Below are positions 577 through 64,000 of a stretch of 64,000 nt of DNA, piece by piece. Source of the DNA: Stegostoma tigrinum (Eukaryota); contig NC_081391.1 of NCBI RefSeq assembly GCF_030684315.1, forward strand, positions 21,536,629 to 21,600,628, read 5' to 3'. Position 1 is the first letter of the stretch; every line of letters begins with the position of its first letter. A program made the position numbers and the translations under genes. A model generated the notes under the pieces. The model was not told where the DNA came from, did not search any database, and saw nothing but the letters and a program-made list of their open reading frames with translations.

Positions 577-1732
<1,156 letters not shown>

Positions 1733-1803: not shown

Positions 1804-1809
1804 ATTAAA
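1804..1809 (+). terminator. Probable polyadenylation signal ATTAAA of ferritin A
   Basis: About 70 nt after the stop; same motif and context at 5608-5613 (B) and 12104-12109 (C). Confidence 0.6.
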
Positions 1810-2226: not shown

Positions 2227-3120
2227 CAGGCCAAGCAGCATCTCAGGCGCACAAAAGCTGACGTTTCGGGCCTAGACCCTTCATCAGAGAGGGGGATGGG
2301 GAGAAGGAACTGGAATAAATAGGGAGAGAGGGGGAGGTGGACTGAAGATGGAGAGTAAAGATGATAGGTGGGGAGGGGATAGGTCAGTCCAGGGAAGACA
2401 GACAGGTCAAGGACGTGGGATGAGGTTAGTAGGTAGAGGGGGGTGCGGATTCGGGTGAGAGGGAGGCAGAGACAGGTTGGACTGGTTTTGGGATGCAGTG
2501 GGTGGGGGGGGAAGAGCTGGGCTGGTTGTGTAGTGCAGTGGGGGGAGGGGATGAACTGGGCTGGTTTAGGGATGCAGTAGGGATTTTGAAACTGGTGAAG
2601 TCCACATTGATACCATTGGGCTGCAGGGTTCCCAGGCGGAATATGAGTTGCTGTTCCTGCAACCTTCGGGTGGCATCATTGTGGCACTGCAGGGGGCCCA
2701 TGCTGGACATGTCATCTAGAGAATGGGAGGGGGAGTGGAAATGGTTTGCGACTGGGAGGTGCAGTTGTTTGTTGCGAACTGAGCGGAGGTGTTCTGCAAA
2801 GCGGTCTCTAAGCCTCCGCTTGGTTTCCCCAATGTAGAGGAAGCCACACCGGGTACAGTGGATGCAGTATACCACATTGGCAGATGTGCAGGTGAACCTC
2901 TGCTTCATGTGGAATGTCATCTTGGGGCCTGGGATAGGGGTGAGGGAGGAGGTGTGGGGGCAAGTGTAGCATTTCCTGCGGTTGCAGGGGAAGGTGCCGG
3001 GTGTGGTGGGGTTGGAGGGCAGTGTGGAGCGAACAAGGGAGTCACGGATTGAGTGGTCTCTCCGGAAAGCAGACAGGGGAAGGGATGGAAAAATGTCTTG
3101 GGTGGTGGGGTCGGATTGTA
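2227..3120 (-). mobile_element. 5'-truncated Penelope-like retroelement (GIY-YIG endonuclease C-terminus plus 3' pLTR)
   Basis: Minus ORF 2426-2920 encodes NVVYCIHCTRCGFLYIGETKRRLRDRFAEH...LGTLQPNGIN, a PLE GIY-YIG domain; same family as 51845-53831. Confidence 0.9.
2260..2287 (-). ncRNA. Minimal hammerhead ribozyme core in Penelope pLTR
   Basis: Reverse complement reads CTGATGA-AGGGTCTAGGCCC-GAAAC-GTC. Confidence 0.6.
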
Positions 3121-3123
3121 AAT

Positions 3124-5542
<2,419 letters not shown>

Positions 5543-7589
5543 GTGGGGTCAATGTCTATGTTGTACATGGTGACATAATGCTCGTAACTTGGTTGTGCTC
5601 TGAGCAAATTAAAATAGTGTTCACCATGGAACTGAGTACTTTGCATAATTTCACAGCTGCTTCGGGCTCTTGGTATTGCTGTTTTCACATCTGATCATTG
5701 AATCCTTTTCTGTTACTTTGGATTAACCTTTAATTCAATGCCTGCCCCAGTAGTTTGCTCCTCTTTTGTCTGTACGAATTCAGTAGGCAATTGATTAGTG
5801 GAAATCCCACAAGTGTTCAGTTCTTTTTTTGTCAGTACAATACTGTCTACTAGCCAAACAATTTTTCAGGACCAGCTTCTAGTCAATACCTTGACTTAGA
5901 CCAGCCCCCTCCTTAAGTGTTGGGAACTGAACTAGAGCCCTGCCCTGTGCAATGCTCAGGTCTCATTGGAATAAGCAGCTGCAGAAAATCTCAGGTTTGG
6001 CAGCACCTGTGGCAAGAACTGTTCAGTCCCACGACCTGAGACACATTATCATCTACTGACAGATGTTGCCACGCCTGTGAGGTTTTCCAGCAATTTGTTC
6101 TAGCACTTGGAATCTAAATGATTTGAGCATACATTCACTTTTCAAACAGGAACATAAAGTAAAAAATGTAAGCTTGAGGATGCACTGATTTTTAAACTTT
6201 TTTTAGATAAGCAATTGCTACAAATTGGTTTCTCTCCTATTTCCTTTGCTTGTTGATCAGTGGAAGGAGTGAGTCTAATGGCTGCCTGTAGGAGAATGGG
6301 AAATCTCGTGCGCTCTCTCTCAACTTTTAACATTGCTCTGCAACGTAAAGATGACAAAGGCGAAGAACACCAGGCAAAAATAAAGCTAGAACCCTAAATA
6401 CCACTCAGAGAAATCAGTAGTTCCAATTTTTAGCTCTTTATTTTCAATGAAATGAGCTCTCCTGCTCTCAAGTGACCTGCAAGTGACAGCACATGCACTA
6501 GTCTATGCCTGCCTAGTTCGTGATGCTCAGGGGGACAGTCTCCTCGAGTCAAAAGATGTGGATGTCTCTGAGCTGACAGCATTTATTATCCATTTCCAAA
6601 GTGCCCCAAGGCCAGGTCAGAGGTGCACACATCACTGTGGTTGCAGGGTCATGTGCAGGCCAGGATGGGTTTTTGACACTGAATTTAATGCTCCTCATCA
6701 GCTCCTCAATTCCAGAGCGTTATCAGATAGATAGAATCAGGAGATCAGGCCAACACTCCTGAAACTTGATGGCCTCCAGCTCTGAGCAATGACTGTCAAG
6801 CTCATTATTAGGTTCTTATTGCCAGAAGAGAGTTGTTCAGACAGAATCAGGTCAACGGGTATCGGCCCAACACGCCAGGAGCTTAAGAGCCTCCAGCTCA
6901 GAGCAGCCGCGAGATTCATTCTTTCCACCACTGACACACAGGGACTACAATATGTGCCGTCTAACAAATGCTGTAGAAATCCACCAAATCTTCTTAGACA
7001 ACACCTTCCAAAGCCCCCATTCATCCAGTGTTGGTGGATCAAAATGCTGCCATTGCCTCACCAGAAGCATTGGGGATCTGCCTCCACTAAATCAACAACA
7101 GTTCAAGAAGGCAAGCCACCACGTTCGCGAATCTAATGTTAGGCCTGATCTTGGACCAGTTCAAATATCTCAGCGTGGAGGTTCTTTTGTTCTAGTTCAA
7201 ACATATCTGGAGTGCACAGTTCTAGCAGGTTGGACCCAAAGATGGTTATGAACAGAATTTCTGGAATGCCCCCGGACAGAAAGTTAATGGGTTATTATGA
7301 TAATACTTTGCCCAAGCCCTTCTGTGTAGAAGTGTAAAGGATGTCTGTGCTTCAAGTTTCAAAGTGGATTGATGCATTTGAGAGGGTAGAGAGAGAGATC
7401 CTGCTTCTTTTCAATCCTCATCTAGGACTAAGAGTGGGGAATATGATTACAATCCTCGCATTAGAAGTAAAACATCTATGATAAAGCCAAAAACAGCTTC
7501 GTTTTGGAAAGGATAATATGTGAATCAGCAGATACATTTTTATTTGGTAAGATTTGATGTTGCCAATTGCTTTCCAATTTGAACATAAA

Positions 7590-8330
7590 AGATGATTGCA
7601 TTTTGGTTGAACAAACGTAGAAAGACAAAACAGGCTCGATATTACAATTCTGAGGCGAGTACAAGAGCAGAGGGACTTTGGGTTTCAAGTATGTCATTAC
7701 TGGAAAGTGGCCGAGCAGGACTAAGCTGCTATGAGAAGGCTTTTGTGAAATGTGTGTTTTCAAATGGACGCAGAGAGTATAAAAGGGAGGAATAGATGTT
7801 ACACCTCTACAAATCATTGGTTAGACCACATATGCAGTGTTGTGTTCAGTTCTGGGCATGGTATTTAAGGAAGGACAGAGTTCAAAGGGCATTTACGAGA
7901 ATGACACCAGGAATGAGGGATTTTAGATACAAGGAAAGATGAAACAAATTTGGAGTAAATCTCCTTGGAGCATAAATGTTTAAGAGGTGACTCTGTTGAA
8001 GTGATCAAAATAATGAACAATTCTGTCAGGGTAAAGGAGAACATTCTGTTTTCACCAGTTGATTATGGCAGTAATGAGGGGTCACAATTTGTCAGTAATG
8101 GAGCTCCGAGATGAGGACAAACCTCTCTATTCAGAAGGTTGTTAGGATTTGGAATCTGATGCCTGGGAGAGTGGCAGAGGTAGATCCCATAGGTGGCTTC
8201 AAAACAAGAGCTGGATATGTACTTGGAAGTGATGAATATAGAGCGTATAGGGCTGGAGAGGGGGCCTAGGTGGGTAGCTCTTTCGGAAGCCGATACAGAC
8301 ATGATGGGCTGAATGGCCTCTGTCGTTTAA
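7590..8330 (+). mobile_element. Degenerate CR1-type LINE 3' fragment, duplicated at about 14100-14850
   Basis: CR1 RT C-terminal remnant (LYKSLVRPH...VQFW-like) and typical 3' end gggctgaatggcct. Confidence 0.75.
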
Positions 8331-8899
8331 AAATCCTCTGAATGTCCACCCAGGAACTTTTATAAATTTTGGGTTTGTATTCCTCTCTGTCTTAAATGTC
8401 CAACCCAGTCCTCTTACATCAGGATACCCTGATCCTGGACTCCCCCATCATTGGGAACATCCTTCCTGTCTTTGCCCCGTCTGATCCTGTCACAGTTTTC
8501 TATGACCCAGAGTCAATTTTCCACCTTTCTGTCTCATATCCCAGCACAACAGGCTGAGAAACTGACACCTCTTCTTCATTGACTTCCTCATGCAGTTTGT
8601 CACAACCACCTTAATTTAGAAACAAAGTGTTAAAGCTGTTCTCAAACCAAATGCAGTTTTTTTAAAAAAGAGCCAAATAATTTATGAAGAAGTGTCCAGA
8701 CCTGAAACATCAGCTTTCCTGTTCCTCTGATGCTGCTTGACCTGCTGTGTTCATCCAGCTCGACACCTTGTTATACAAATGACCCATGACCTGATTGAGT
8801 GGAGCAACAGGTTTGAGATGCTGAATGGCCTCCTGCTGTTCCAATCACAGAATAACCATCCAGACCTGACGATCATCTCCACCACTGATCAGCTCTGCT

Positions 8900-9033
8900 T
8901 AACACACCCTCCCCCTCTCTCTAATTGGTGCCTGTATGAATGGATGGTTCCTGATTGGCTAGCAGCAACTGTCAGTCATCGTCAGTTCTACCTCTCCATG
9001 GGTGAGTGCAGGATGGTCCCAGGAGTATAAATA
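8900..9033 (+). promoter_or_regulatory. Core promoter of ferritin C: CACCC motif, two inverted CCAAT boxes (8924, 8954), TATA box TATAAATA (9026-9033)
   Basis: Motif order and spacing upstream of ATG 9097, conserved in the ferritin D promoter. Confidence 0.7.
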
Positions 9034-9096
9034 CAGAGCTTGTGTGAGACCAACTCACTTCTGGAGTGGTCTTGGTTTTTGTGAGTGGGAATAGTG

Positions 9097-12031
9097 ATGA
9101 TGGCTTCCCGAGTGTGTCAGAACTACCACAAGGACTGTGAGGATGCTGTTAACAAGCAGATCAACCTGGAGCTCTATTCCTCCTATGTTTACCTCTCCAT
9201 GGTGAGGCTTGTGACATTGAGGACCTGACCTCAAATTGAAGCCTGTGATAGACTTGCATTGACTCTCTTAGGTTTATTTTCTTGCTTAGTTTAATGATTT
9301 AGTTGTAGCATGTGTTTTGGTCTGTGGCCCTTCCCTGACTGAATCCCAGTGAAATGGTTCACACTGACTCTGTTGGAAACTTGAAGTTTGTCTTGTATTG
9401 CAACTGACTCCTGGGTGACAATGGCCACTTTGTTATCTCTGGACAATGTACTCCTTAGTGACTTTTCTCCTTCCTCTGAAGGGATGAGCTGATGTTGCTG
9501 ATAAACCTATATTTTCCTTAAATTTAGTTGCAATTTATTTTAAAGAAAAGCTTTCCCTAGTGTGAATGTGTCTATGCAAAACATGCTCCCCCTTAAAATG
9601 TTGCCCCATTCACCAGGCTGCCCTCTGCTCTGGCCCTAAATGAGTTTTTTCTTTGCTAAATGAACTGCAACTGCTGGAAATTAGAAATAGGAACAAAAAT
9701 AGCTGGAATAGCTTTACAGATCTGGCAGGACTTAAAGAAATCAGTTCATGTTTTGGGTCCAGTGACCCTTCCTTGGAAGTCCTCCTCCTAGCTATTCAGT
9801 AGGAGGAAAGACAAGTGTGGCATGTTTTCACACTCCAAATGGGAATTACTGAAGAAAAAAGACCCGTTAGAAGTCAGTGCTGGGGAGATGGTAGGAGAGT
9901 GGGGTTATTCAGGTGGGTGATGTTGGTAATGCTGGAGCTCACTGCGATTCATGGCTTGGTTCATCCACGTGTCCTTCCACTCAGTGCTGTGTCCCTGATT
10001 GGCTGGTTCTATGTCCTCTCTTTGGGCTATAATCCATGGGAGAAGACTTCCTGCTTCTGCCTGTCCATGTTCTAGTCATTAAAATGTCCAGTTCTGGTTG
10101 CCACATTAACAAAGGGATGTGAATGCTTTGGAAGGGGTGCAGAGGAGGTTCACCAGGATGTTGTCTGGTATGGAGGGTGTGAGCTAGGAAGCAAGTTTGA
10201 GTAGATGAGGATTATTTTCATTTGGGGGTGGGTCCTGATTGAGCTCCTTAAATTCATGATTTGTGTAGATAAGGTGGCTAGCAAGAACTCTTTCCTAGAG
10301 TGGGGGATTCAATTACTAGGGGTCATGAGTTCAAAGTAAGAGCAGGAAAGTGTTTTTTTTTGTTTGGAGATTGGGTTAGATTGCTTTTCAGTGTGGAAAC
10401 AGGCCCTAAGTTCCAAGTCCACACTGGCCCTTGACGCATCCCACCCAGACCCATTCCCCTATAAACCCCATACCTCTGAATGCTACGGGCAATTTATCAC
10501 ATGGATATGTTTGGAAAGCTCTTTACGCAGAGGTTGGAGGGTGCCTGGCACACATTGCCTGTGGAGGTGGTAGATGCAGTCACGCTAGTGTCTTAAGATC
10601 TATCTGGACAGGTACATGGATGGGCAGGGAGCAAAGGGATACAGACCCTATGAAAATAGATGACTGATTTGAGACAAGATCTCACTCTGTGCAGCCTTGG
10701 AGGGTCAAAGAGCCTGTTCCTGTGCTGTAGCTTTTTTGTCATTAAATGTGGAATCAAGATGGTGACTGGGTTAGTTTCTGATTGAGGAGTGCCATTGAAT
10801 TTCAGATACATTTCCCCTTCCTGCCTTTCTCTTCCCCACAGTTCTCTTACTTTGACCAGGATGATGTTGCCCTGCGTCACTTTGCTGAGTTCTTCAAGGA
10901 GCAGTCCCATGAGGAGCGGGAACATGCTGAGAAGCTGATCACATTCCAGAATAAACGTGGAGGTTGTGTCCTTCTGCAGGACATCAAGGTTGGATTCTAA
11001 TTTTTTTCAGCTCACTACAATTGACTGGTATCTCAATATGCTCAGGTTCAGGATTGGGCAAATGCTGTGTGAATGGGAGGTTGCTCACCACAATACGATT
11101 CCCTTCATTAAAAGGAAATACTTTGTACTTGTGATTCAACAACAGTCAGCAATTGTGATCCACCAAAACACTGGTGAGCAAATGTCTGTATACAGTGCTG
11201 CTTTGGACAAGATGAGGTGTCAAAAGGAAAAACAGAAATCTTTCAGGTGTGGAAAGCATCAGTATGAAGCTTTATGCATCGAAGATGTTTCTGATGCCTT
11301 GAGATCACTCTGATCACAGCATAGCAGGATCTGTTTAGAAATGTCCCCTTCAAGAACAGTACCAAATACAGCAGGTGTTTCACCAAGGTCAAGTTGGCCT
11401 GTAGTACCTCCCCTACAATGATGAGGGATAACTAACTAACTGATCAGATGTAGACTAATGATACAACTGCCTGCTGAGCTGTGCTTTCTGTTCCTGCTTC
11501 CCTCCCTCCAGAAGCCAGAGCAGGATGAGTGGGGCAATGGTCTGGAGGTAATGCAGAGAGCTCTGCAGATGGAAAAGGATGTGAACCAGAGTCTGCTGGA
11601 TCTGCACAAACTGGCCTCTGGCCACACGGACCCTCATGTGAGTGTGTATTTTTAAATCAGGGTTTTTGGGATTTTAAAAATAGGGATCAGACACTTGGTC
11701 CTCTTTGTTAGCCACAAGATCTCATTTGACATTGTGGAGTGTTTTCTTGGGTTATACCAAGATCCTCCAGTTTCTAAAACTGAGTGCTTTCTCAAGTGTA
11801 TTTGGCAATCTCCATTACATCACTTCACTGGTCTCCCAAGCTGTATTTTGCTGGATTTAACCAGTTCCCCTCTTTGCTTTCTAGCTGTGTGACTTCCTGG
11901 AGAGGCACTACTTGGATGAGCAAGTGAAGATGATCAAGAAGCTGGGAGATCACATCACCAACCTGAAGAGACTGGGAGCCCCTGCCAATGGCATGGGAGA
12001 GTACCTGTTTGACAAGCTCTCACTCAGCTGA
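9097..12031 (+). CDS. Ferritin C, M/H-type subunit, 173-174 aa; exons 9097-9201, 10842-10988, 11512-11637, 11885-12031
   Basis: Complete spliced [33 protein letters not shown]...[10 protein letters not shown] with GT-AG introns and all seven ferroxidase ligands. Confidence 0.95.
10076..10746 (+). mobile_element. CR1 3' fragment with a nested inverted HE1-SINE tail (about 10374-10504) in intron 1 of ferritin C
   Basis: Absent from the homologous introns of A and B; flanked by direct repeat gtcattaaa (10076 and 10738). Confidence 0.7.
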
Positions 12032-15000
12032 ATGGGGTTAATACCTATATCTGTTGTACATGGTGACTTCAGTCTACTAAATGACTAGTTGTTCTCTGAG
12101 CAAATTAAAATAGTGTTCACCATGGAACTGAGTGCAGTGTAATTTTCATAGCTTCTGGTTCTTGGAGGTTTTTGTGTTTTAACATCTGGTAATCAAATCC
12201 ATTTTCTGTTCTTTCCTGCAACCTTTGATTCAATGCCTGCCCCAGTAACTTGCTCAGTGTTTTCATTCTGCTGAGTGTCTGTTGGGATTGAGTGGGCAAT
12301 CCTTAGTTGAAATTCCACAACTAAAAAGTTAATGCTGATTTATGTCATCTACTTGCAGGGACAATTTTGCAGGACCAGCTTCTAATCAATACACTGACTG
12401 AAATCAGTCCTTTGCCCAAAGATTAGGCACTGATCTAATGCACTACCCTTGGCCATGTTTTTGGGTCTTTTTTCCTTTAAATAAGCAGATTCTGGAAACC
12501 AGGAACAAAACCCCCTGGGAAATCTCCTAGTTTGGCAGCCTTTGTAGGGAGAAGCATTGAACAGAACCTGGACCTGAGATGTGATCATCTCTTGACTGAC
12601 TCTGCTGGCAGACCTGAGGTTTTATCCAGCAATTTGTTCTAATGCTTGGATGCTACTGATTTTAGCACATCATACAATTCCTCATCAGATGAATATCAAG
12701 TTAACATTTATCTAGTAAGATACATTGCTTTTCTACTCCTTTCTTTTAGCTAAGTAATTGCTTATGATGTCATTGTTCTGTGAGCTAGGGAATTAGTTTC
12801 TCCAGTATTTCCTCTTCCTTGCAGGAGAATGAAACATCTGCCTTCTCTCACCATGCTTGGAAATGAAGCAGTGCCTGCCTTGTGACCTGAGATAATTTCT
12901 CTCATTGCCTGAGAAGGCAGAAGTGACAAATACCGAGGATGCCTTGTGCAAATAAAGCTAGAATGCAAATACCACTTGCAGAAATCAGCAGTTCTGTTTG
13001 TAGCAAGGAAATGAGCTCTCCTGATGTAGACTGACCAGCAGATACCGACACCTGCAATGCACTATGGCTGCCTAATTATTGATGCTCAGGGGTGACAGTT
13101 TCCTTTTATTTCAAGGATGAGGCTGTCTCTGAGCTGCCACCACTTATTTATCCATGGCTCATTGCCCCCTCCACACTCACTCTCCTTTCTTTCCCCGGCC
13201 CCACCCCAAGGCCCGGTCCCAGTCACACACATTGCTGTGGTTGCAGGGTCATATGCAGTACGCAGGCCAGACTAGGTAAGGATGGGTTTTTTGATCCTCA
13301 TCCCTCCCAGCTGTCACTAGATTCATTCTTTCCACCACTGACACGCAGGGACTACACTGTGTACCTTCCAACTGCTGCAGAAATCCACCAAAGCTCCTGA
13401 GACAATAGTTTCCAAAGCCCTAATTACTTGCCATGGGAGAAGGGCAGCTGTTACAGGGGCGTACCACCCCCCTCTGAGTTCTCCACCAAGCGACTCGCCA
13501 TCCTAAGTTGGAAACGTGACCCCATCCTCCAGTGTCGGTGGATCAGAAACCTGGAATTCTCTCACTAGGAACATTGTGGATCTGACTACAGCAAATAGGC
13601 AACAGCAATTCAAGAAGGCAAGCCACCACGTTCTTGGGCCTCATCTCTGAGGGTTTCAAATACCTCTGGATGGAGGTTCTTTTGTGAAATTGTCACGTTC
13701 TAGTTCAACCACATCTGGAGTGCACCGTTCTAGCAGGTTGGACCCAAAGATGCATGTGCACAGAATTTCTGGAATGAACCTGGCCAGAAAGTTAATTGGT
13801 TATGATGACAATAGTTTTGCCAAGCCCCTCTCCGTAGAAGTGGAAGGGATGTCTGTATGTCTGTCATTGAAATTTCCAAGTGGATTCACGGATTTGATAG
13901 GGTAGATAGATACTGCTTCTTATCAATTCGCATCCAGGACTGAGAGTGGGGAATATGATTACATTCCTAGCATTAGAAGTGAATCATCTACGATAAAGCC
14001 AAAAACAGCTGCTCCTTGGAAAGGATAATATGTGAATGAGCAGTTAAACACTTATTCAGTAAAATTTGATGTTGCCAATCACCTTCCCGTTTCATCATAA
14101 AAGATGAATGCATTTTGGTTGAGAAACATGGAAAGACAAAACAGGCTCGATGTTACAAATCTGAGGTGAGTACAAGAGCAGAGGGACTTTGGGTTTCAAG
14201 TATGTGATTATCTGAAAGTGGCCGAGCGGGACTAACCTGCTCTGAAGAAGGCTTTTGTGAAATGTGTGTTTTCAAATAGACGCAGAGAGTATAAAAGGGA
14301 GGAATAGATGTTACACCTCTACAAATCATGGGTTAGACCAGATTTGCAGTATTGTGTTCAGTTCTGGGCATGGTATTCAAGGAAGGACATTAAAGCCCTG
14401 GACAGAGTTCAAAGGGCATTTACGAGAATGACACAGGAATGAGGGATTTTAGATACAAGGAAAGATAAAAGAAATTGGGGTAAATCTCCTTGGAGCATAA
14501 ATGTTTAAGAGGTGACCCTGTTGAAGTGATCAAAATAATGAACAATTCTGTCAGGGTGAAGAAGGATATTCTGTTTTCACCAGTTGATTATGGCAGTAAT
14601 GAGGGGTCACAATTTGTCAGTAAGGGAGCTCTGAGATGAGGACAAACCTCTCTATTCAGAGGGTTGTTAGGATTTGGAATGTGATGCCTGGGAGAGTGGC
14701 GGAGGTAGATCCCATAGGTGGCTTCAAAACAAGAGCTGGATATATACTTGGGAGTGACGAATATAGAGGGTATAGGGCTGGAGAGGGGGACTAGGTGGGT
14801 AGCTCTTTCAGAAGCCAATACGGACGTGATGGTCTGAATGGCCTCTGTCGTTAAAAATCCTCTGAATATCCACCCACGAAATTTTGTGAATTTTGGGTTT
14901 GTATTCCTCTCAGTTTTAAATGTCCAACCCAGTCCTCTTAGATTAGGATACGCCGTTCCTGGACTCTCCCATCATCTCCTCTCCACCTATCTTCTTTCAT

Positions 15001-15065
15001 CTCCATCTTCGGTCCGCCTCCCCCTCTCTCCCTATTTATTCCAGAACCGTCTCCCATCCCCCTCT

Positions 15066-15093
15066 CTGATGAAGGGTCTAGGCCCGAAACGTC
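15066..15093 (+). ncRNA. Minimal hammerhead ribozyme core (Penelope pLTR fragment)
   Basis: CTGATGA-AGGGTCTAGGCCC-GAAAC-GTC. Confidence 0.6.
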
Positions 15094-15199
15094 AACTTTT
15101 GTGCTCCTGAGATGCTGCTTGCCCTGCTGTGTTCATCCAGCTTCACATTGTGTTATCTTACTTTTAGATTGTTATTGGGTAAGGTTTGACGTTGGTAAT

Positions 15200-15890
15200 C
15201 ATTTCCTAATTTCAATACAAATGTGAGGAAATGCATTTTGGTAGAAGAAATACAGATGGGCAATATAGGCTCAATGGTAGAGCTTAGAGGTGAGTACAAA
15301 AGCAGAGAAAGCTGAGTTCAAGTACATAATTATCTGAAAGTGGTCAGGCAAGATGAAGTTTTTATTAAGAAGGCTTATAGAATCCTTGTGTTTTTAAAGA
15401 GAGGCATAGAGTACAAAAGCAAGGAATTGTTGCGAAACCTTTACAAATCATTGGTCAGACCACATCTGGAGTTTTGTGTTCAGTTCGGGCCACCACTCTT
15501 AAGGAGGGATGTTAAAGAGCTAGGGAGAGTTCAGACGAGGTTGACAAGAATGAAACCAGGAATGAGGGATTTTAGACACAAAAGTATATTAAAGAAATCA
15601 GGCTTTTTCCTCCCTGGAGCAGAGAAGATTAAAAAGTGACCTTATTGAGGTGTTCAAACTCAAATAATTTTGTCAGAATAAAGGGGGACATTCTGTTTAC
15701 AGCAGGTAGTACGTCAGTGAGTGGCGGTCATAATTTGTTAGCAATTAGACATCAGAGTGAGATGAAGAGAAACCTCTTTATTCAGAGAGTTGTTTAGATT
15801 TGGAATGTGCTGCCCGGGAGAGTGGTGGTGGTCGTGGAGGATTCCATGGGAGGTTTCAAAAAAATAAAGAGCTGGATACATATTTGATAG
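15200..15890 (+). mobile_element. CR1-type LINE 3' fragment
   Basis: ORF 15340-15639 encodes RGIEYKSKELLRNLYKSLVRPHLEFCVQF, the CR1 RT C-terminus. Confidence 0.8.
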
Positions 15891-16649
15891 GAAAACCAAA
15901 AGAACTCTGTTTGCTGTAAATCAGGAACAAAAATAGTTGCTGGAAAAGTTCTGCAGGTCTGGCAGCACAGATGCCACTGATGTACTCTCTGATGAAGGGT
16001 CTAGGCCCGAAACATCAGCTTTTGTGCTCCTGAGACACTGCTTGGCCTGCTGTGTTTATCCAGCTCCACACTTTGTTATCTTGTATTCTTCAGCATCTGC
16101 AGTTCCCATTACCACTGACGTACTACCTGCTGTAAACAGAATGTCAGGATAAAGGGGGACAAAATTGTTTGAGTTTGAACACTGCAATAAGGTCACTTTT
16201 TAATCTTCTCTGCTCCAGGGAGGAAAAGTCCTGATTTCTTTGGCCTACCTCATATCTTTACACTGCGACCCCCTGTTCTGGACTTCCCCCCCCCCCCACC
16301 ATGGTGAACATCCTTCTTGTTTCTGTCCCATCTGGTGCTGTTACAATTTTCTATGTGCTCAGGCTAATCTTCCACCTTTCACACCCAAATCCCAGCACAA
16401 CAGGCAGAAAAACTGACCCCCACCCCCTTCAATGAACCGCACCTGAAGTTGGTCACAACAGAACTTATCTTAAAAGGGAAACTTTTTCTCAATTCAGATC
16501 AATTTCTTTTTAAAAAAAAGAACCAAATGACCTATGACATGATTGAGTGGTGCGGCAGGTTTGAGATGCCGAATGGCCTCCTGCTGTTCCAATCACACAA
16601 TAACCATCCAGACCTGATTACCATCTCCACCTGTGATCAGCTCTGCTTA

Positions 16650-16780
16650 ACACACCCACCCCCTCTCTCTAATTGGTGCCTGTATGCATGGGTGGTTCCT
16701 GATTGGCTGTCAGCAATTGTCACTCATCATTGGCTCTGCCTCTCCCTTGGTGAGTGCCGGACGTCCCAGCAGTGTAAATA
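16650..16780 (+). promoter_or_regulatory. Core promoter of ferritin D: CACCC, three inverted CCAAT boxes (16672, 16702, 16729), variant TATA TGTAAATA
   Basis: Homologous to the ferritin C promoter. Confidence 0.65.
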
Positions 16781-16847
16781 CAAGAGCTTGTGGGTGAGAG
16801 GCTCAGTTCTGAAGTTGTCTAGGTGATAGTGAACAGGAATAGTGAAG

Positions 16848-18951
16848 ATGGTTTCCCAAGTGTGTCAGAACTACCACAAGGACTGTGAGGATGCTGTTAA
16901 CAAGCAGATCAACCTGGAGCTCTATTCCTCTTATGTTTATCTCTCCATGGTGAGGCTGGTGGCCCTGATTAAAATTCAGAATGTGATTATATTTGCATTG
17001 AGTCTTTTAAGTGTTTTCTTGACCAAATAATTAGCTCACTTGAATGTTAAGTCTGCCAGTCTTTCTTTGACTGAACCTGATGAACACTTAATGAGGAAAC
17101 CTTTTGTTCCAATGTTTAGAATATATTTTGGGTTTCTGCTGCATGAATGTCCCCAGTTTGCTGTAACTGAACAGCATACCTACTGGTTCCTACTCTCCTA
17201 GCTGTGGAAGGCTGGTCTGGCTCAAAATGTGTTTGGTTTTTTACTTCTTGTAAAACAAGCCTAATTAACCAGGCTGTTGAAATCTGAGTAAGCTTATTAA
17301 CTATTCAACATGAAAGTAGCTAGGTGTGGTACACTTTTTTCACTTGAAATGTGAATGTTTTAAATATACAGTTAGAATTCTGTGTGGAGTAGATGGTAGG
17401 ACACTGGGATTATTCAGGTGGGTGATGTTGTTCGTGTGGTAGCTGACAGACTGATTACTGTATTAATCAACACATTTCCTACTGAAACACAGGGCAATGT
17501 TCTGACTGTGTCTTCTAGCACTGAGCAATAGGGCTTTTAATGAGCCTTGCAGGTTCAAGTCTAATGGCTGTGCCCCACCTGTGACCTTCATATTCCAGCA
17601 TACTGGACTTATGCACTCTGTAACCACGATACAGGTCAAGGTTACATTTGTGCTTTTGACTTGTTTGGGGTTTTTTTTCCCCTCCTTAAGTAAGATCAAG
17701 TGTCACTGGGTTAGTTCCTGGCTTAAGTTCTGTGGGTGAAAGTGAGACTCAACTCCCCTCTTTTTGTGTTTTACTTTTACAGTTCTCTTACTTTGACCGG
17801 GATGACGTTGCCCTGCGTCACTTTGCTGAGTTCTTCATGGAGCAGTCCCATGAGGAACGGGAACACGCTGAGAAACTGATGGCATTCCAGAATAAACGTG
17901 GAGGCCGAGTCCTCCTGCAGGACATCAAGGTTGGGGTCTTAATTTGGCTTTCTTTCTACTAGATTAGAAATAACGCTATTCTGTCTGGATTTGAGGTGAC
18001 TTAACTCCAGATAATGGCAATTCCAAACTGATGCCCTGTTAGCCCCTTCTCTTGCATCTTTACTGGATTGAATGCTCACTAAAAAAATGACCACCTCTTC
18101 TCTTCTGTTCTGCCATCAGAAGCCAGAGCAGGATGAGTGGGGCAATGGCCTGGAGGCAATGCAGATAGCTCTGCAGATGGAGAAGGATGTGAACCAGAGT
18201 CTGCTGGACCTACACAAACTCGCCTCTGGCCACATGGACCCTCATGTGAGTTTGTCATGCTCGTGACCCATGAGGAAAGCTTCAGATTACTGCTGGAAGG
18301 TGACTCTGTCCTTTTATAGCTGTACTTCTGAATGAAGCTAAACTACCTAAATTCAAACATGTAATTGAACAGGTGTTCATAAGCAGACATAACTGAAAGC
18401 TGTATCTAGCAGCATCTGTAGACAGAAAGCAGGTAATGTTTTGGGCCCAGCAACCTTTCAGAACACTTCCTCCCTTTTAAGGTAGGGTTGCTAAATTGGA
18501 AACACGAATAATCCCTCTCCTCAGATGCTGCCAACCTGCTGAGCTTTCCAAAAACTCTTTTGCTCTAGAGGCTGCAGTCCTTCCAGTTTTAACTTTTTTT
18601 TAAACTTGTACAGTCTAGCAGATTTCAGCCACTATTGCTACTGTTATAGAGCAGTGACTTTGTTTAGTGCCATGTCACAAGTGACTTGTGACTCCCTGGA
18701 TATGACTCTCTACTAGCTGGCAAGAGCATGCTGTATTAACTTGTCTCTTAGTTTTAAAACCTTGTTTCCAAAAGTCTGCTCACTTTTCTCCTTCACAGCT
18801 GTGTGACTTCCTGGAGAGGCACTACCTGGATGAGCAAGTGAAGATGATCAAGAAGCTGGGAGATCACATCACCAACCTGAAGAGACTGGGAGCCCCTGAC
18901 AATGGCATGGGAGAGTACCTGTTTGACAGGCTCACCCTGGGGGAAGAGTGA
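16848..18951 (+). CDS. Ferritin D, M/H-type subunit, 175 aa; exons 16848-16949, 17783-17929, 18120-18245, 18799-18951
   Basis: Complete spliced [15 protein letters not shown]...[12 protein letters not shown]; ferroxidase ligands intact; AATAAA at 19122-19127. Confidence 0.95.
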
Positions 18952-53831: not shown

Positions 53832-54564
53832 CAGATCAGATTGATTTTTTTTTATAAAGAGGCCCAGGGATAGATGCTGTCTTGGGTTGGGGCGTGCCTA
53901 TGTCCTGCCACGAGTGGTGGCTGTATTTCGGGGTTCAACAGTAAATGATATTGCTTTCCAGTCAAGTTTCCTGAGTTATTACAACTAAGATCTCTGTTCT
54001 CCATGTTTCTTACATCCTGCGAGCTGTCTCACAGCCCTGGCTGGTTTGTGCCTGCTCTTAGCAGCGCAGACCCATTATCCCTTTTGACTAATATCGACAG
54101 CCATTGATAACACAGCGTGAAGCCGGAGGAACACAGCAGGCCAGACAGCATCACAGGTGCAGGACAGTTGACGTTTCTGGTCAGGAGCCTTCTTCACAAA
54201 TGACCCGAAACATCAGTTTTCCTGCTGCCCTGATGCTGCCTGGCCTGTTGTGTTCCTCCAGCTCCAATCTCTGTCAGCTCTTACTCCTGCATCTGCAGTT
54301 CTTACTGTCCTCAGTGAATTAACACCCATCTAACATCTCTATCACTCCTTTGCCACCACAGGCACTCCCACCGTCTTTTGCTCTGGGTTCCCTTATGATT
54401 TGTTCCACTTGCTCCACCTCCACTTCCCTCAGCGGCATCGAAAACACCATTTTCCGCTCCTTTCCAGTTCTAAAAGAGTCCAAATCGATTTGACGCGAAA
54501 GCTTTGTTTCCCTCCGCTGAATTTTCACCAGCAATTCCTGTTTTTGATGTAAAACAAGGGTCAG

Positions 54565-54859
54565 TGCCACACTCAAGATGGCAGACCAACGGAGCCGACC
54601 CCGCCCTGATGCTGCTCGAAATGGCGGGCAACGGACACGCCACGCTCAAGATGGCGGCCACATGGCACCGCCCCTTCCCCCAACACGGCGGTTGGGCTGC
54701 GCGCGACGCTCCGCCCTTTAGAGCCAATCAGCGGCAGCGGACCCGGCGTGCGAGTTCCCGGCCCGGGCGCTAGCACGGCGACGTGCGCGTGCCCCTCGCT
54801 GCCCCCCCCATTTCCCCCCCCCCGCCTCAGCCGCCGCTGGTCGTGCCTGAGCTCAGGCG
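54565..54859 (+). promoter_or_regulatory. CpG-island, TATA-less promoter and 5' region of ferritin F with YY1, GC-box and CCAAT motifs
   Basis: Most CpG-dense segment of the window; CAAGATGGCGGC at 54647-54658, CCGCCC boxes near 54601, 54668 and 54711, CCAAT at 54724-54728. Confidence 0.75.
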
Positions 54860-57800
54860 ATGGGCAGCCTGTGGCGCCTGTTACCGGGACGTTGCCGCCT
54901 CCTCCTGGTCGCACCTCGGCACCCCGGCCTGCCGGGCCTGTCTTGCTCCCTCTTCGCCGCCCGGACACAGCTGCGGGTCCAGGGGGGGTCTCAGGGCCCG
55001 CGGAGATGGGGGTCTCAGGGCCCGCGGAGATGGGGCCACAGCCGCCAGGACTACCCGAGGGAATGTGAGGAAGGCATCAACAGACAGATCAACCAGGAGC
55101 TCACCGCCTCCTACGTCTACCTGTCCATGGTGAGCGGGGATCCAGCAGATCCCAAGAACTCCAGCACACCTCAGTGGGCAATACAGCACATCCCATTTCC
55201 TCCAGCAGGTCTTTTTTGATCCAGTATGTCACATTAGGGCATCCAGTGGATCCCATTCACCCCAGCACACCCAGTGGAGAATCCAGTAGATTTCCATTCA
55301 CCCCAGCACACCCAGTGGAGAATCCAGTAGATTTCCATTCACTCCAGCACACTTTAGTGGGGAATCCAGTGGATTCCATCCACTCCAGCACACCCAGTGG
55401 AGAATCCAGTCGATTTTCATTCACTCCAGCACACTTTAGCGGGGAATCCAGTGGATTCCATCCACTCCACACCCAGTGGAGAATCCAGTAGATTTCCATT
55501 CACTCCAGCACACCCAGCGGGGAATCCAATAGATTCCATTCACTCCAGCACACCCCTTGGAGAATCCAACAGATTCCATTCACTCCGCACAACCAGTAGG
55601 GAATCCAGCAGATTCCATTCACTCCACACCCCAGTGGGAAATGCAGCTTATCCTATTCATTCCGCATCCCAGCAGGAAATCCAGCAGATCCCACTCATGC
55701 CAGCACTTTTCATTAGGGAAATTCAGCAGATCCTCACTGCCTCGTGCATAACGGGGCCAAATCCTGGCCCATCCTGTTCACTCCACCATGTTCCAGCAGA
55801 GAGCCTAGCGCATTCCCATGCAGTACAGCCAATTCCAGCAAGGAATCTCAGCTCAACCAAGGATAAAATCCCGAAGATTCCAATATATCTCAGGAGAGAA
55901 CCCAAGCATGTACTCACTGTCTGATAAGTCCCAGAAAGGAATCCCAGCACACCCAGAAGACCTCAAGGGAAAATCCTGCCAGTCATTGTTCAACTCAACA
56001 CATGCCAGGAGGGAAACCCAGCACCAAACCCAGTACATTAAGGAAAGAATCCAGCAGATACCATTCAGCCTAACATTTCCCTGGAGAGAAATCCCAGGAG
56101 AGAATCAGGCATGTCCCATTCAAAACAATGTATACTGGTGCAGTGTACAGAGCCCAGGGCATGTCACTAGGAATTCCAGCACATCGCTGTAGTAAATTTC
56201 ACACATCACATTTGAGAAACCATGGCCTTCTGCATGGCATAGCATATCCCACACCCCCACACCCACCAAGTAATATCTCCCCCACCTCAGTTCCCCCAAC
56301 AGTAAATCCCAACAAATCCTCACTGGCTGACATCACTTCCCAGCAGGAAATTCTAGCAGGCCCCCACCAGCTAGCACATCCCAGCAAGGCATGCCAGTAT
56401 TTTCTTACATCTTGAGAATAACAACCATCACATTGCCTACAGTATAGATTATGTCAGTTTCAATGCGGAAGTAGCAAGGCTCCACAGTACCAAGAGAAAT
56501 ATCTAGTGCTACTTATACAATAGAACTTTATCCAATCAGCGCAACAAGAAACTCAGCATATCTCCTTTCAATCAAAACACGTGCCCTCCAACAATTCCAG
56601 CATCTTCCTTCAGTTTCCCAACCCAAAATATAAAATCAGTTTGGCTGGAGTTGGGGGATATAGGAAAAACATCACTGCTGGGAATGGTTTATATCACTAA
56701 CAATAGTTAAAAGTCTAGTTCAGAGTGTGTAACACTATTATTCAAGAAAGGGCAGAGCCAAAATGCAGGAAACTATTGCCTAAGGTTGGGAAATTGCAAG
56801 AATTCCCAAAGTAGCAGGTCATTTAGAACATCATAATGCAATCAGACAGAGCCAACATGTTTTTGTAAAAAGGAAACTGACAGATTTATTACAGCTGTTG
56901 GTGAATGTTACATGTAAAGAAGGTGGGAACAATATTTGGATGTATAAAATGCTGAGGTGATACGTTAGCATGGATAGAGGGAAGTGACAGCGTGGTGGTA
57001 TTATCACTGGACAGTAACTCCATTGACTCGGTATTAATCCATCATGGTGGTTCAGTGGTTAACACTGCACCCTCACAGTGTCAAGGACCAAAATTCAGTT
57101 CCATCCTGGGCGACTTCTCTGTGTTGAGTTTGCACATTCTCCCAATATCTCCATGGATTCCCTCTGGGTGCTCCACTTTCCTCCCAAAGTCCAGAGATGT
57201 GCAGTTTAAGTGGATTAGCCGTGCTAAATTATTCCATACTGTCCAGGGAAGTGCATTCTGGGTGGATTCGCAATGGGAAATGGAGGAATACAGGGAGAGG
57301 ATGGGCTGGATCTGAGTGGGATGCTCTTTGGAGGATCAGTGATTGATTGGCTTGATTGGAGGAACTTGATTGGCTGAATGGCCTGCTTCCACACTGTAAG
57401 GATTCTACAATCTAGAGAATGTTCTGGGGACCTGGGTTCAAATCCCACCATGACAGATAGGGGAATTTGAATTCAGTACAAGTCTGGAATTAAGAGTCTA
57501 ATGACAACCGTGAATCCTTTGTCAGTTGTTGGGAAAAAGACCATTTGGTTTACTAATTACCATCCTTACCTGGCTGACATGTGACTCCAGACCCATAGCA
57601 ATGTGGTTGACTTTTGACTCAATTAGGGATGGGGTGATAAATGCTGGCTGTGCATGTGACTCCCCCAATCCTGTGAATGAATAATAAGAGAAAAGGATTG
57701 CTTGACAAACAAGAAACAAGAGTCAGAATAAAAGCTCATTTTCAGACTGGTGAACTATCATGTAGTCAGATAACACAGAACCAGTGCTGAGGCTTCAATT

Positions 57801-60800
57801 ATTTGCAGTCACTATTAGTCACTTGAATGAAAGGTCAGTCTGTATTGTAGTTAGATTTACTGATAAGATTAGGGTAGGTAGGAAAGCTAGGTCTGAGAAG
57901 GGTAGAAGGATTTAAAAAGATATTGAAAGGTAAAATTACAGAGTATAACGTGGGAAAATGTGAGGCTGTCCACTTCAATAGAAGAATAGAAAAGCTAAAT
58001 ATTACTTAAATGGGAGAGAGTGTAGAAAGCTACATTACAGAGGGATCAGGATCATATATGAATCACAAAAGTGAGCATCGAATTACAGCAAGTAATTGTG
58101 AAGGCAATGGAACATTAGCCTTTATTGGAAAGAGGATGGAGTATTTAAAAAAACAAAATTGTGCTACATTGGTACCCGCTGTAGGATATGATTTTACTGT
58201 CAATATTGAAGGAACAATATACTTGCATTGAAAGCAATTCAGTGAAGATTTGCTGGTCTGATTTGTTTGGATAAAGGGAACAAAAACAGAAATTTGCTGG
58301 AAAAGCTCAGCATGCCTGGCAGGATCTGTGGAGGGAAATCACGTCAATGTTTCAGGTCAAGTGACCCTTCCTCAGTGCAAATGAAAAAAGGGATTTTGTC
58401 TTACAAGGAAGGGTTGAGCTGCACTCATTGGAGTTTGGAAGAAATCAGTGATCTTATTGGAATGTAAGATTCTGAGCACATCTGGGAGGGTGGATAGTGA
58501 AAGGATGGTTTTTTTTTCTAGTGGGGATGTGGAGCCAGGGGTCACAGTTTCAAAATATAGAGTCACACTTAAAATAAAAAGAGAACGTGCTGAAGAAACT
58601 CAGAAAATCCGATAGCACTCGTGGAGAGCATTAGCATTTCGAGTGTGATACAACTTGTCTTCGAAAAAGAGAATCAGCAGCATTTTGAAAAGGCAAATTG
58701 GGCAGGACTTGTACACTTAATGGTAGGGTTCTGGGGAGTGTTGCTGAACAAAGAGACCTTAGAGTGCAGACTCGTAGTTCATTGAAATTGGAGTCACAGG
58801 TAGACAGGATAGTGAAAAAGGCATTTGAAATGCTTGCCTTTAGTGGTCAGTACATTGAGTACTGGAGTTGGCACGGTATGTTTTAGCTGTACAGGACATT
58901 AGGCCACTTTTGGAATGTTCTGTTCACTTCTGGTCTCCCTGCTACAGGAAGAATGATGTGAAACTTGAAGGAGTTCAGAAAAGATTTAAAAGGATGTTGC
59001 CTGAGTTGGAGGGTTGTGCTATAGGGAGAGACTGAATAGCCTTGGGCTATTTTCCCTGGACTGTTGGAGGCTGAAGGGTGACCTTATAGAGGTTTATAAA
59101 ATCAAGAGAGGCGCGGATAGGTTGAATAACTAAGTTGTTTTCCCCTAAATGAGGGAGTCCAGAACTAGAGGGCATAGGTTTAAGGTGAGAGGGGAAAGAT
59201 GTAAAGGGGACTTAAGGGGCAACTTTTTTTACACCGAGGGTGGTGCGTGTTGGGAATGAGCTGCCAGAGGAAGTGGTGGAGGCTGGTACAATTACAGCAT
59301 TTAAAAGGCATTTGGACGCGTATATCAATAGGAAGGTTTAGAGGAATATGGGCTAAATGCTGGCAAATGAGACTAGATTAATTTAGGATATCTGGTTGAC
59401 ATGGGCAAGGTGGGCTGAAGGGTCTGTTTCCATGCTGTACCGCTCTATTGATAAATTGAAGAATTGATAATGATTATAGTGATGAATCAAAGTGTCGATC
59501 CAGTCTAGGTGTTAATGGCAGATTAATGGGCTGTTGTGGTGTGGTGGCAGTGTCGCTGTCTCTGAGTCAGGAGGCTTGGGTTTAAGTCCCACCTACTCTA
59601 AAGATGTGTAATAATATCTATGAACAGGATGATTAGAAAATATAGACCCAGGGTTGGTGCTAGTGACAGATTTATGGACCCTTGTCATGCAGGTCTAGTG
59701 TCCCTATCTTTGAGTTAGAAGGACCAGGTTCTAGTCCCATCTACACAAAGGTGTATCATAACATGACCAGACAGGCTAAACACAAAACAACAGTAATGGT
59801 GAATCAAACGTTATCTCTGACCAAAAACAAGGATATGAAACAAGCTGAAGGCACAGAGATAGAGAATCAATAGTTTTTGAAATTCTTTTCCACAAAGAAC
59901 GTCAGAGATTGGATCATTGAATATATTCAAGGTTACTTTAGAAGTATTTTTGACTGGCAAAGAATTAAAATGGACTGACAGAAAAGTGTACTTAAGGTCA
60001 CAATTAGCTCACTGATGATCCTATCAATTGGTGCAACAGGCTCAGTGGGCCAAATGGCATACTCCTGTTCCCATCCCGTGTAATCTTACGATCATTAACT
60101 CTCAACTCCAGTACATATTCATATTCGATCCTCATATGCCCTTGTACAACCCTAGGACATCAGATAATCTTCTTCATAGCCAGCAGATTTGACAAATTAT
60201 AAAGCAACATGTAATCTCATTGATTTGCATTAATCATAGGACAGGGCATGGTTTAAAATGGAAGTTTTAAATCATGCTAAATAATTAAAGATATTAGAAA
60301 GTATTTCTTGAGAGCATTGAGGCCTAAAATAATTGAGACTAAATCCAGCATAGTATTTTTTTTAATTGAGAACAGGATAAATATAACATGAAAAGAAAAT
60401 ACTATGATGGCTGGAAATCTGAAATGACAAATAGCAAGGGCTAGAAAGCACCCAGGAGGTCGGGTAGTACCTGGATAGAGATTGAGAATTAGCTTTTAAG
60501 TTTACTGACAATTAAATATGTGACCTTGGTCTTAGCTGTGCTCTCTAACTGGATTCTCAGCTTTCTGACCCATAGACCACAATCAGTGAGGATAGGTAAC
60601 TGCACCACCTCCACAATAACTCCAAACACTGGAGTTCCCCAAGGATGTGTCCTTGGCCCCCTACTGTATTCCCTGTACACCTACTACTGTGTTGCCAAAT
60701 TCTGAACGAATGCCACCTACAGGTTCACTGAAGAGACCGTGTAGTGGGACTGATGGCTAACAACGATAAGTCAAAACCCAGAAGGGAGATGGAGGGCTTG

Positions 60801-63800
60801 CTGATGTGGTGCAATGAAAACAATCTGTCTCTGAACATCAGCAAAACTAAAGAACTGATCATTGACTCCAAGAACAAAAGAGGAGAATATGCCTCCATCC
60901 ACATCAGTGGAACAGAGGCTAAGAGAGTGAAGAGCGTCAAGTTCCTAAGAGTGACAATAACCGGCAGCCTGTCCTGGACTCCCCATGTAAATGCAACAGT
61001 TAAGAAGGCACAATAACACCTCTTCTTCCTCAGGCGGCTCAGGAAATTTGGCATGTCCATAAGGTCCCTTGTCAACTTCTATAGATGCATCATTGAAAGC
61101 ATAATGTCCAGGTGCATGTTGAACAGCTACTTCTTCACCATTGAATAGACTCTAGTCTCAAATAATTTAACCTGTACATCTTTTTGACCTGTACATCCTT
61201 TGCTTACTGTGATCTGCCTGTACCATTCTTAAACAAAGCTTTTCACTGTATTTCAGTACATGTGACAATAAAATCAATCAATCAATCATCCAAACTTGAA
61301 GATGTTGAAGACTGGTCATCATTAAGTGGAGACAAAACATGACTGTAAATTGAATTAAAATCATACAAATAGTTATACAAATTATACAAATAGTTGTAAA
61401 CTGTGTAGATTTACATTGAAGGGCTTATGTCAGCTCATACTCAACTAAGGCTGGCTTTTTCTTTTCAATTTCCTATACTTGTTTATAAAGAAGTGTCATA
61501 TTGTCTTGCGTATAATATTGTTATTAACTCTAATAGTTGCAAAATGCTGCAGAACCTCCAGGAGCAGGTGGATGTAATTGCAGTATGACATGTTTACATT
61601 CAAAATTTAGAAACATAAAAGATTGGAGCAGGAGAAGGCCATTCAGCCCTTTGAGCCTGCTCCAACATTCTTCACGATCATGGCTGATCATCCAACTCAA
61701 TAGCCTAATCCTGCTTTCTCCCCAAAACTTTGATCCTATTCGCCCCCGGTGATATATGTAGTGGCCTGTTCAATACGTTCACTCTTTTGGCATCAACTAC
61801 TTCCCGTGGTAATGAATTCCACAGGCTCACTGCTCTTTGGGTGAAGAAATGTCTCCTCATCTCTATCCTAAATTGAATATCCCAAAACCTCAGACTGTGA
61901 CCCCTGGTCTTGACGCACCCAACGTCGGGAACATTCTCCCTGCATCTACTCTATCCAGTCCTGTTAGAATGTTATAGGTCTCTGTGAGATCCCCCTCATT
62001 TTTCTGAACTCCAGTGAAAACAATCCCAACCTATTCAATCTCTCCTCATATGTTAGACCCGCCATCCCCAAAGTCAATGCGGTAAACCTTCACCACACCC
62101 TCACAAACCTTCAGCCATGATCGTAAAGAATGTCAGAGCATGACTCAAAGGGCTGAATGGCCTCCTCTTGCTCTTTACGTTTCTAAATTCTGAATATAAA
62201 CATCACTGCAGTCACATCCTCCTACTACTGGAGGTTCTGCAGCATTTCCAACTACTACAAAGAGCAAGAGCATCCTTCCTCAGAAAAGGAGACCAAAACT
62301 GCACACGATATTTCCAGCTGTGGTCTCACCGGTGGCTGTACAACTGCAACAACACATCCCTGCTCCTGTACTCGAAACCTCTTGCATTGAAGGTCAACAT
62401 ACCATTTCCCTTCTTTATCGTCTGCTGCATCTGCATGTTTACGTTCAGTAACTTCTGCACAAGCTATGAACTGACATAAGTCCTTCAACGCAAGCCTACA
62501 CAGCTTACACATATTTGTATAACTTCCAATTTTAATTCAAATTATAGTCATGTTTTGTCTCTACTCAATGATGATCAGTCTCCAACATCTTCCAGTTTAG
62601 ATTATTGATTAATTGATTTTATTGTTACGTGTACCAAAATACAGTGAAAAGCTTCGTTTATGAGCGGTACAGGCAGATCACAGTTAGCTAATGATGTACA
62701 GATCACAAAGGTTTAGAGGCATACAGGTTACATTGTTTGAGGCTCAAACCCATTCAACAGTTTCATTGTTGAAGAAGAAATTTTATAGCTCCTTTCTCAA
62801 CCTCAGGACATTCGAAAACACATAACAGCCAGTGAAGTGTTTTGCTGATGATTAGTCACTTATGCAGGAAATATGGGTCACCTTTTCCTTAAAGCAAGCT
62901 TAAACACAATCACAAGTGACTAAACAATGAACTACGGATGATGGAAATCTCAAACAAAAAGAAGAAATTGCTAGAGAAACTTAGCAGGTCGGGAGAGAAG
63001 ACAGAGTTAACATTTGGAGACCAGTTCTGAGAACAGATCACCGGACTTGAAATGTTAACTCTGCATTTCCTCTCTACTGAATTACCTGTCTGATTTACAA
63101 GTTATGGTGGAAAGATAAATACTGGCTGGGAAACAAGGGATAGCAGCCCTGGTCTTTGAACTATGGTAAAACCATTGGGTTCTTCGTGTGCACCTGAGGG
63201 AATTTTGCAAAGGAAGATGTCGCTTTGGAAAACTCCCTGAGATAAATGTAAATAACTACAATGGACATGTCTCCTCTCTGGAGAAAAATTCAAACCACAA
63301 TCTTCTGACTGGGGTCAGTGTGAAATGCCGGTACAAAGCTGACATGTACTTGTACCAAGAAGATTGTGGGATTGTCTCTCGAAGGCTTAAATATTTCGTA
63401 GTCTGCTCTGACTAGGTAGTGAATGGTAGAGTGTTGACAGGGTGACCATGAATGAATGGTGAGGTATATTCGTGTTGGGATGGCATGTGCCTTGGTGTTT
63501 TAAATATTGTCATCGCCTGCTGTTTTTATCTGCCTCAGTCGTACTACTTTGACCGGGAAGATGTTGCTTTGCGCAACTTTGCCAAGTTCTACTTGGAGCA
63601 GTCACTTGAGGAACAGAAACATGCAGAGATGTTGATGAAGTTCCAGAATCTGCGTGGTGGCCGTATCATCTTCTCGGACATCAAGGTTAGTGGGCAAGAG
63701 CTGTCTCTACCCTCTTCACTGTTCCAATGGCTTCTCCCTAATGTTAAGCGATTTGGTTCAAGTCCATTGACCCAATTATCTTTATTCATAGAAACCCAGC

Positions 63801-63917
63801 CGGGATGAATGGGGCAATGGCTTGGAAGCGATGGAGCAGGCCCTGGAGCTGGAGAAAACGGTGAACCAGTCTATCCTGAATCTACACAAAGTGGCATCCG
63901 AGCAGAAAGATCTTGTT
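54860..63917 (+). CDS. Ferritin F with 56-aa N-terminal extension, candidate mitochondrial ferritin, partial (exon 4 beyond window); exons 54860-55129, 63539-63685, 63792-63917
   Basis: Exon 1 [16 protein letters not shown]...[29 protein letters not shown] then GT; exon 2 [14 protein letters not shown]...SDIK; exon 3 [14 protein letters not shown]...KDLV. Exon sizes 147/126 match the paralogues, and I saw no other ferritin exon between exons 1 and 2. Confidence 0.88.
55140..55710. repeat. Minisatellite, about 40-bp unit (atccagtagatttccattcactccagcacacccagtggaga), about 11 recognisable copies
   Basis: Unit starts at 55241, 55281, 55322, 55364, 55404, 55446 and onward; degenerate on both sides. 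Confidence 0.9.
60520..61290 (+). mobile_element. Rex1/Babar-type LINE RT fragment with 3' UTR ending (TCAA)n
   Basis: Encodes [17 protein letters not shown]...[19 protein letters not shown] and [20 protein letters not shown]. Confidence 0.85.
61610..62460 (-). mobile_element. CR1-type LINE 3' fragment
   Basis: Minus remnant of [23 protein letters not shown] type, with 3' end gagcaggagaaggccattcagccc. Confidence 0.7.
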
Positions 63918-64000
63918 GTGAGTTGGGCAGACGTTGCCAAACCCTAGCCACTCTGAATTGGTGTATACATTTGTTGCCCTCAGAAGTGAAAAGGTTCTGT

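Follow-up and report, generated by a model that had tools for sequence, protein, structure and literature searches.

Structure of the gene and its product

The analyzed window, a stretch of 64,000 nt from the Stegostoma tigrinum genome, contains the first three exons of a four-exon ferritin gene whose 232-aa product begins with a long N-terminal leader. The features of this gene, in window coordinates unless another system is given, are as follows.

54722..54731, + strand: what we take to be a CCAAT box, in a CpG-rich promoter
54860..55045, + strand: N-terminal leader of 62 codons, a candidate mitochondrial presequence that occurs once in the genome and has homologous leaders in 20 other species
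54985..55032, + strand: 24-nt tandem duplication (8 codons) within the leader, frame kept, read from the sequence
55046..55129, + strand: remainder of exon 1, encoding helix A of the ferritin fold, which carries E27 and Y34
55130..63538, + strand: intron 1, 8,409 nt, GT-AG, repeat-rich
63539..63685, + strand: exon 2, with E61, E62, and H65
63792..63917, + strand: exon 3, with E107
G000:C50:21601754-21601909: exon 4, with Q141 and the stop codon, beyond the window

Exon 1 (54860–55129) is open throughout its 90 aa and has a GT donor at its end (55129), which confirms the exon that the original prediction had proposed, and the ATG at 54860 has G at both −3 and +4, bearing out the strong Kozak context claimed for it. 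An in-frame TGA lies four codons 5′ of this ATG. As had also been claimed, no Met occupies the usual ferritin start: the residue at that position (residue 57) is Arg, and the second in-frame ATG (55127) is the final codon of exon 1, past helix A. Because exon 1 holds helix A and has no other Met before its end, the predicted leader is almost surely translated. An alternative first exon was sought in intron 1 with tblastn, which revealed no second ferritin-like first exon, and all three introns of the gene are GT-AG.

The product retains all seven ferroxidase ligands (E27, Y34, E61, E62, H65, E107, and Q141), the first six as already noted from the window and the last in exon 4. It contains a PF00210 domain (four-helix bundle; E = 3.5e-38) and matches the human H chain in Foldseek with a TM of 0.85 by target. 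Its sequence is identical to RefSeq XP_048377534.2 (P0129), "ferritin heavy chain A-like" of S. tigrinum. The gene model, leader included, is already in RefSeq under an H-chain-like name, and "mitochondrial" appears in no database name of any ortholog.

Promoter, IRE, and expression

The interval 54700–54899 has a G+C content of 0.75 and a CpG observed/expected ratio of 1.02, and no TATA box was seen by eye in the leader-gene promoter. Rfam detected no IRE in the window; across the 94 kb examined it found two, one belonging to FTH1 and the other to the tail-to-tail neighbor of the leader gene, and these served as positive controls. A motif that we take to be YY1-like has two promoter copies but occurs only 6 times in the window against 11.5 expected, and it was dropped. 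The upstream extensions of the Heterodontus (P0004) and Rhinoraja (P0025) protein models contain peptides that fit an in-frame YY1-like word followed by a CCAAT box, hinting, at the protein level, that this promoter layout may be common to sharks and rays.

Four small-share runs, which we guessed to be RNA, were mapped to 54300–64000 and were swamped by intron repeats; contigs mapped in this way cannot rank expression. Three of these four presumed RNA runs displayed the same contig depth on exon 1 and exon 2 (87.3, 5.47, and 5.7), a weak hint of splicing, and one of the four gave cover in the bin 54624–54947. The Leucoraja protein is also present in a Logan assembly, which, given the four-exon gene, suggests that it derives from a spliced contig.

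Composition of the leader

The first 63 residues contain 11 Arg, 10 Gly, 10 Leu, 6 Ser, and 6 Pro, with zero Asp, Glu, or Lys, so the 11 Arg and the absence of acidic residues reported originally were both correct. The use of this composition as a presequence signature, the main argument of the original prediction, proved weak on its own. Among 20,000 shuffles of the leader DNA (74% G+C), 8.6% encoded no Asp or Glu, 36% encoded at least 11 Arg, and 3.4% had neither Asp/Glu nor a stop; moreover, 15 control 5′ UTRs, taken from mammalian H-chain models and translated in frame, were likewise Arg-rich and acid-poor (1 to 11 Asp/Glu). Composition in one species therefore lies within what chance gives, and we rejected it as proof of a presequence. 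Hydrophobic moments of the leaders (0.43 to 0.77) overlapped those of the translated UTR controls (0.42 to 0.79), the richness in Pro and Gly disfavors an amphipathic helix, and the AlphaFold model (a modest one, with a mean pLDDT of 55.6) gave residues 1–62 a pLDDT below 50 and no helix. It is conservation across species, rather than composition, that carries the case.

Conservation across sharks and rays

The ortholog set comprised one protein from each of 21 shark and ray species, which we take to span ten orders, with six isoform or partial models omitted; these species share ancestry and do not amount to 21 independent tests. All 21 orthologs begin with M-G/A-S/R, at the annotated start in 19 and at the homologous Met in P0004 (a fused model, Heterodontus) and P0025 (an upstream-extended model, Rhinoraja), and the usual ferritin Met is absent from every one. 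The leaders have 14 distinct lengths ranging from 28 to 65 aa, each of them in frame, and all seven ferroxidase ligands are kept in 21/21. An open Arg-rich leader, proposed at the outset as something to look for in other genomes, was thus found in all 21 species, its frame unbroken across the 14 lengths. The first 30 residues lack Asp and Glu in every ortholog (8 acidic residues in the 1,124 leader residues overall), and the net charge ranges from +6 to +11, with Arg far above Lys (0 to 2 Lys per leader). None of the 163 other proteins compared had a core closer to the clade, which means that this sample revealed no leaderless member of it. Judging from these alignments, the leader is genuine, conserved coding sequence and an obligatory part of the protein.

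In 14 of the 21 orthologs an Arg-Arg pair stands 14–15 residues ahead of the core despite the changes in length; the other 7 have none there. In S. tigrinum the ancestral pair is lost, and the 24-nt duplication supplies a pair 15 residues before the core. Following the leader, four basal orthologs still show the S-Q-x-R motif with which ordinary ferritins begin, which is expected if the leader was added and the Met replaced. In the core of the clade, His60 and Tyr29 are replaced in 21/21, Asp131 is changed to Glu in 19/21, and Arg22, presumably an NCOA4 contact, varies in 9/21.

The original prediction spoke of cartilaginous fishes, which is wider than sharks and rays, the groups that gave orthologs; no chimaera ortholog came up in the searches described next. 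A leader profile, with 8,000 candidates scored, matched 11 proteins, all from sharks and rays, and a search of 1.84 billion representatives returned 6 proteins (2 clade members and 4 exon-1 pieces) and no leader homolog outside sharks and rays. In the ESM Atlas, the Heptranchias leader had one match at 0.77, mostly a plant ferritin cluster and below the trust level, and the S. tigrinum leader had no usable match. Two Logan proteins (P0124 and P0126) are invertebrate-type ferritin first exons that keep the normal Met and have a basic, acid-poor stretch in frame ahead of it, which may be another leader or a translated UTR. P0070 bears a bacterial-ferritin label, most likely through host contamination; the protein is a mammalian H chain that includes translated UTR.

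Genomic setting

The leader, single-copy in the genome, belongs to a gene that stands at one end of a large array of ferritin genes, consistent with its being a duplicate within a ferritin cluster, as first proposed: 145 of the 150 PF00210 matches listed (1,246 candidates, 150 scored) are on contigs C50 or C216. The array occupies G000:C50:19.95-21.61 Mb, C50:13.1-14.0 Mb, and C216, including 583–18945 of the window, where its copies have TATA-like boxes and no IRE. One copy (3080–3240) has no Met before the core and an extra His codon, and other DNA seems to have taken the place of its 5′ part; this copy is a possible pseudogene. Clusters of 127 to 180 near-identical ferritins from several sharks point to an array expansion common to them, and no literature report of a shark ferritin array was found. 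Six intron-poor copies were checked as possible relatives of the leader gene, and none was closest to it; L001, L002, L005, and L006 (on C11, C5, and C2) are intron-poor, contain stops, and are closest to the array (L005 ambiguously).

Two other ferritin genes flank the leader gene. A divergent one (43726–34095, − strand) lies head to head with it, with 11.1 kb between the starts; it has a long branch and no IRE, and with E27, Y34, K61, E62, Q65, E107, and Q141 at the center, its ferroxidase site looks to have been lost as in L chains. The tail-to-tail neighbor (L031:9425-9460; G000:C50, about 21607262-21609460; − strand) has a canonical IRE and a normal start and forms its own shark/ray clade (100/97). 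By its sequence, this neighbor is predicted to be iron-regulated, and it probably serves as the H chain's housekeeping partner.

More distant neighbors were also compared. Lysyl oxidase, which we take to be the neighbor of FTMT at human 5q23, was absent from C50 among the 26 matches listed. Glycogen synthase, presumably the FTL neighbor in human, is on C20 and C33 and not on C50, and a gene with what we take to be a BAX-like signature is on C50, 4.8 Mb from the leader gene; together they give no more than a hint of synteny with the FTL region.

Phylogeny and comparison with known ferritins

The tree contained 56 rows, including 16 of the 21 leader proteins, with eight redundant non-leader rows dropped and partial outgroups. 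The leader proteins formed a clade (100/100) outside the H clade (99/93). Grouping of this clade with the four mammalian H rows was rejected (p-AU 0.0024), while two sister placements, with the H chains as a whole (p-AU 0.445) and with the array (p-AU 0.506), were both allowed. A phylogeny including FTL, M, and FTMT had been suggested originally; the present one sets the clade apart from H chains but was built without FTMT, mammalian FTL, or teleost M, none of which was among the search results. The leader gene is a gene other than FTH1 and stands apart from mammalian H chains in the tree; it is an old single-copy elasmobranch ferritin paralog.

The true shark FTH1 is on C20, ~45 kb from bestrophin, with an IRE and a normal start, none of which applies to the leader gene; the two are alike in fold and ligands, and the best PDB matches of the leader protein are human H chains (~65% identity). 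The fish and amphibian M-type and shark array ferritins share its exon layout, clustering, and full ferroxidase center (core identity, 63 to 69%), but they have the usual Met start and no leader.

Mammalian FTMT resembles the shark gene in combining an N-terminal leader of ~60 aa, seven ferroxidase ligands, lack of an IRE, and a CpG-rich promoter (PMC8393899, PMC5022048). FTMT is described as a processed copy of FTH1 that is 79% identical to H and carries F12 and S144 (PMC7760355, PMC8393899, PMC12092714), and PMC12092714 calls Ser144 invariant across mitochondrial ferritins. In contrast, the shark gene has three introns at the usual ferritin positions where FTMT has none, a place in a ferritin gene cluster, a CCAAT box, and a clade outside the H chains; its residue 144 is Ala in 21/21 orthologs, and its residue 12 is Tyr in all 19 orthologs aligned there. 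By four tests (introns, H derivation, Ser144/Phe12, and LOX position), it is not an FTMT ortholog. The independence from FTMT claimed at the start holds as regards the introns and the rejected grouping with mammalian H chains; it rests partly on the literature and on a tree without FTMT. The mitochondrial ferritins of Drosophila and plants are organelle-targeted ferritins of separate origin, whose genes, like the shark one, contain introns according to a review (PMC8393899), but they belong to other lineages, and no leader homology to them was found (8,000 candidates scored; 1.84 billion representatives).

Destination of the protein and alternative explanations

The leader is N-terminal, basic, acid-poor, and of presequence length, and the best reading, quite likely in our view, is that of a predicted mitochondrial presequence. 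Its main competitor is an ER signal peptide followed by a basic pro-region, which would make the protein a secreted ferritin (of plasma, yolk, or egg case), as in insects; signal-peptide ferritins are common there, according to the available text of PMC8395497. Several orthologs are compatible with such a signal. Specifically, the first 18–19 residues are uncharged in 3/21 (Heptranchias, Heterodontus, and S. canicula), a Leu-rich stretch reaches a 9-residue hydropathy of 2.3 to 2.5 in four species, and small-residue sites occur near position 20 in Heterodontus and Pristis. However, Arg breaks up the apolar stretch in S. tigrinum, for which the original prediction had noted no long hydrophobic core, and in other carpet sharks, and the stretch is largely deleted in Leucoraja and Narcine. 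A continuous hydrophobic core of the signal-peptide kind is thus lacking in S. tigrinum, and 3–4 of the 21 orthologs are borderline for one. Because these stretch-breaking lineages stay basic and acid-free, mitochondria are favored over secretion. Furthermore, the mean hydropathy of residues 6–20 reaches 0.953, which we take to be the iPSORT cut-off, in only one ortholog and stays below it in 20/21; 8/21 have zero glycosylation sequons; and a basic tail of 30–40 aa would stay on each of 24 subunits. We consider secretion unlikely. A leader that is translated and left uncleaved, directing the protein to the nucleus or nucleolus, to membranes through N-terminal Met-Gly acylation, or to RNA, or altering its turnover, is improbable to a similar degree. 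Gly2 in 20/21 and the Arg/Gly-rich distal part would suit it, but myristoylation calls for Ser/Thr at position 6, which never occurs there in the 21 orthologs, and Rhinoraja has Ala2; Lys is almost absent (0 to 2 per leader), unlike in classical nuclear signals, and the conserved part is the apolar/basic first 30 residues.

A mitochondrial protein might also descend from an old jawed-vertebrate gene that sharks and rays have kept, in which case FTMT would be a retrocopy of the mammalian descendant, the parent would have disappeared later, and the two would not be independent. The similar leader length (~60 aa) and the lack of an IRE would agree with this history, as would L133, common to FtMt but also the state of most non-mammalian ferritins seen, and the tree, which has no FTMT and allows two root positions of the clade. 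We regard it as very unlikely, given that FTMT has the features of a processed FTH1 copy and 79% identity to human H in the available text (PMC7760355, PMC8393899), while the S. tigrinum and Heptranchias proteins are only 64% and 74% identical to macaque H. In addition, Y12 and A144 differ from FtMt, the searches that scored 8,000 candidates and covered 1.84 billion representatives gave no leader homolog outside sharks and rays, and the best 60 PDB matches for two members of the clade included no mitochondrial ferritin chain. Least credible of all is an annotation artifact, in which a G+C-rich 5′ UTR is read in frame and initiation occurs at a non-AUG codon near the old start. Gene finders favor open frames, and false Arg-rich extensions do occur in mammalian FTH1 models, but those retain the normal Met and begin at unrelated places, whereas here a single homologous Met begins the protein in all 21 species, the normal one is missing, and 14 different leader lengths leave the frame intact.

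Proposed origin and function

The explanation that best covers the data, and a likely one, is that of an elasmobranch-wide ferritin paralog predicted to make a mitochondrial-matrix ferritin, separate from FTMT. That this destination arose independently in sharks and rays before they split, through an intron-containing non-H duplicate that dropped its IRE, also seems probable. Before the split, one copy in the ferritin cluster away from FTH1 would have lost its start Met and IRE and gained an upstream in-frame start, presumably in that order. The basic, acid-free, unstructured leader of 28–65 aa would be recognized by the TOM/TIM23 import route, and the matrix peptidase would cleave it, probably right after the Arg-Arg pair 14–15 residues before the core. 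A cut there would leave a mature end of about H-chain length; human FtMt loses 58 residues, according to the available text (PMC8393899). By analogy with mammalian FtMt, whose gene is described in the available accounts as having no IRE (PMC8393899, PMC5022048), mature subunits, each with its full ferroxidase center, would form a 24-mer in which matrix iron is stored and detoxified free of IRP control. The shark and ray gene would have arisen separately from the intronless mammalian FTMT.

The available portions of four papers name mitochondrial ferritin for mammals, Drosophila, and plants only (PMC11719527, PMC7760355, PMC5022048, PMC8393899), and we found no report of a shark or ray gene of this type in the literature covered, which lies mostly outside subscription papers. 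If our reading is true, at least 21 genomes in which this gene passes for an ordinary heavy chain would have their annotation corrected, and vertebrates outside mammals would have a mitochondrial ferritin, gained through tandem duplication rather than retroposition. It would be a mitochondrial ferritin without the Ser144 chemistry thought typical, and Ala144 would offer a natural test of whether mixed-valent chemistry at Ser144 is unneeded in mitochondria or sharks solved the problem differently. A second vertebrate origin, kept in 21/21 species with an ortholog, would imply that selection has repeatedly favored an iron sink in the mitochondrial matrix that is free of an IRE.
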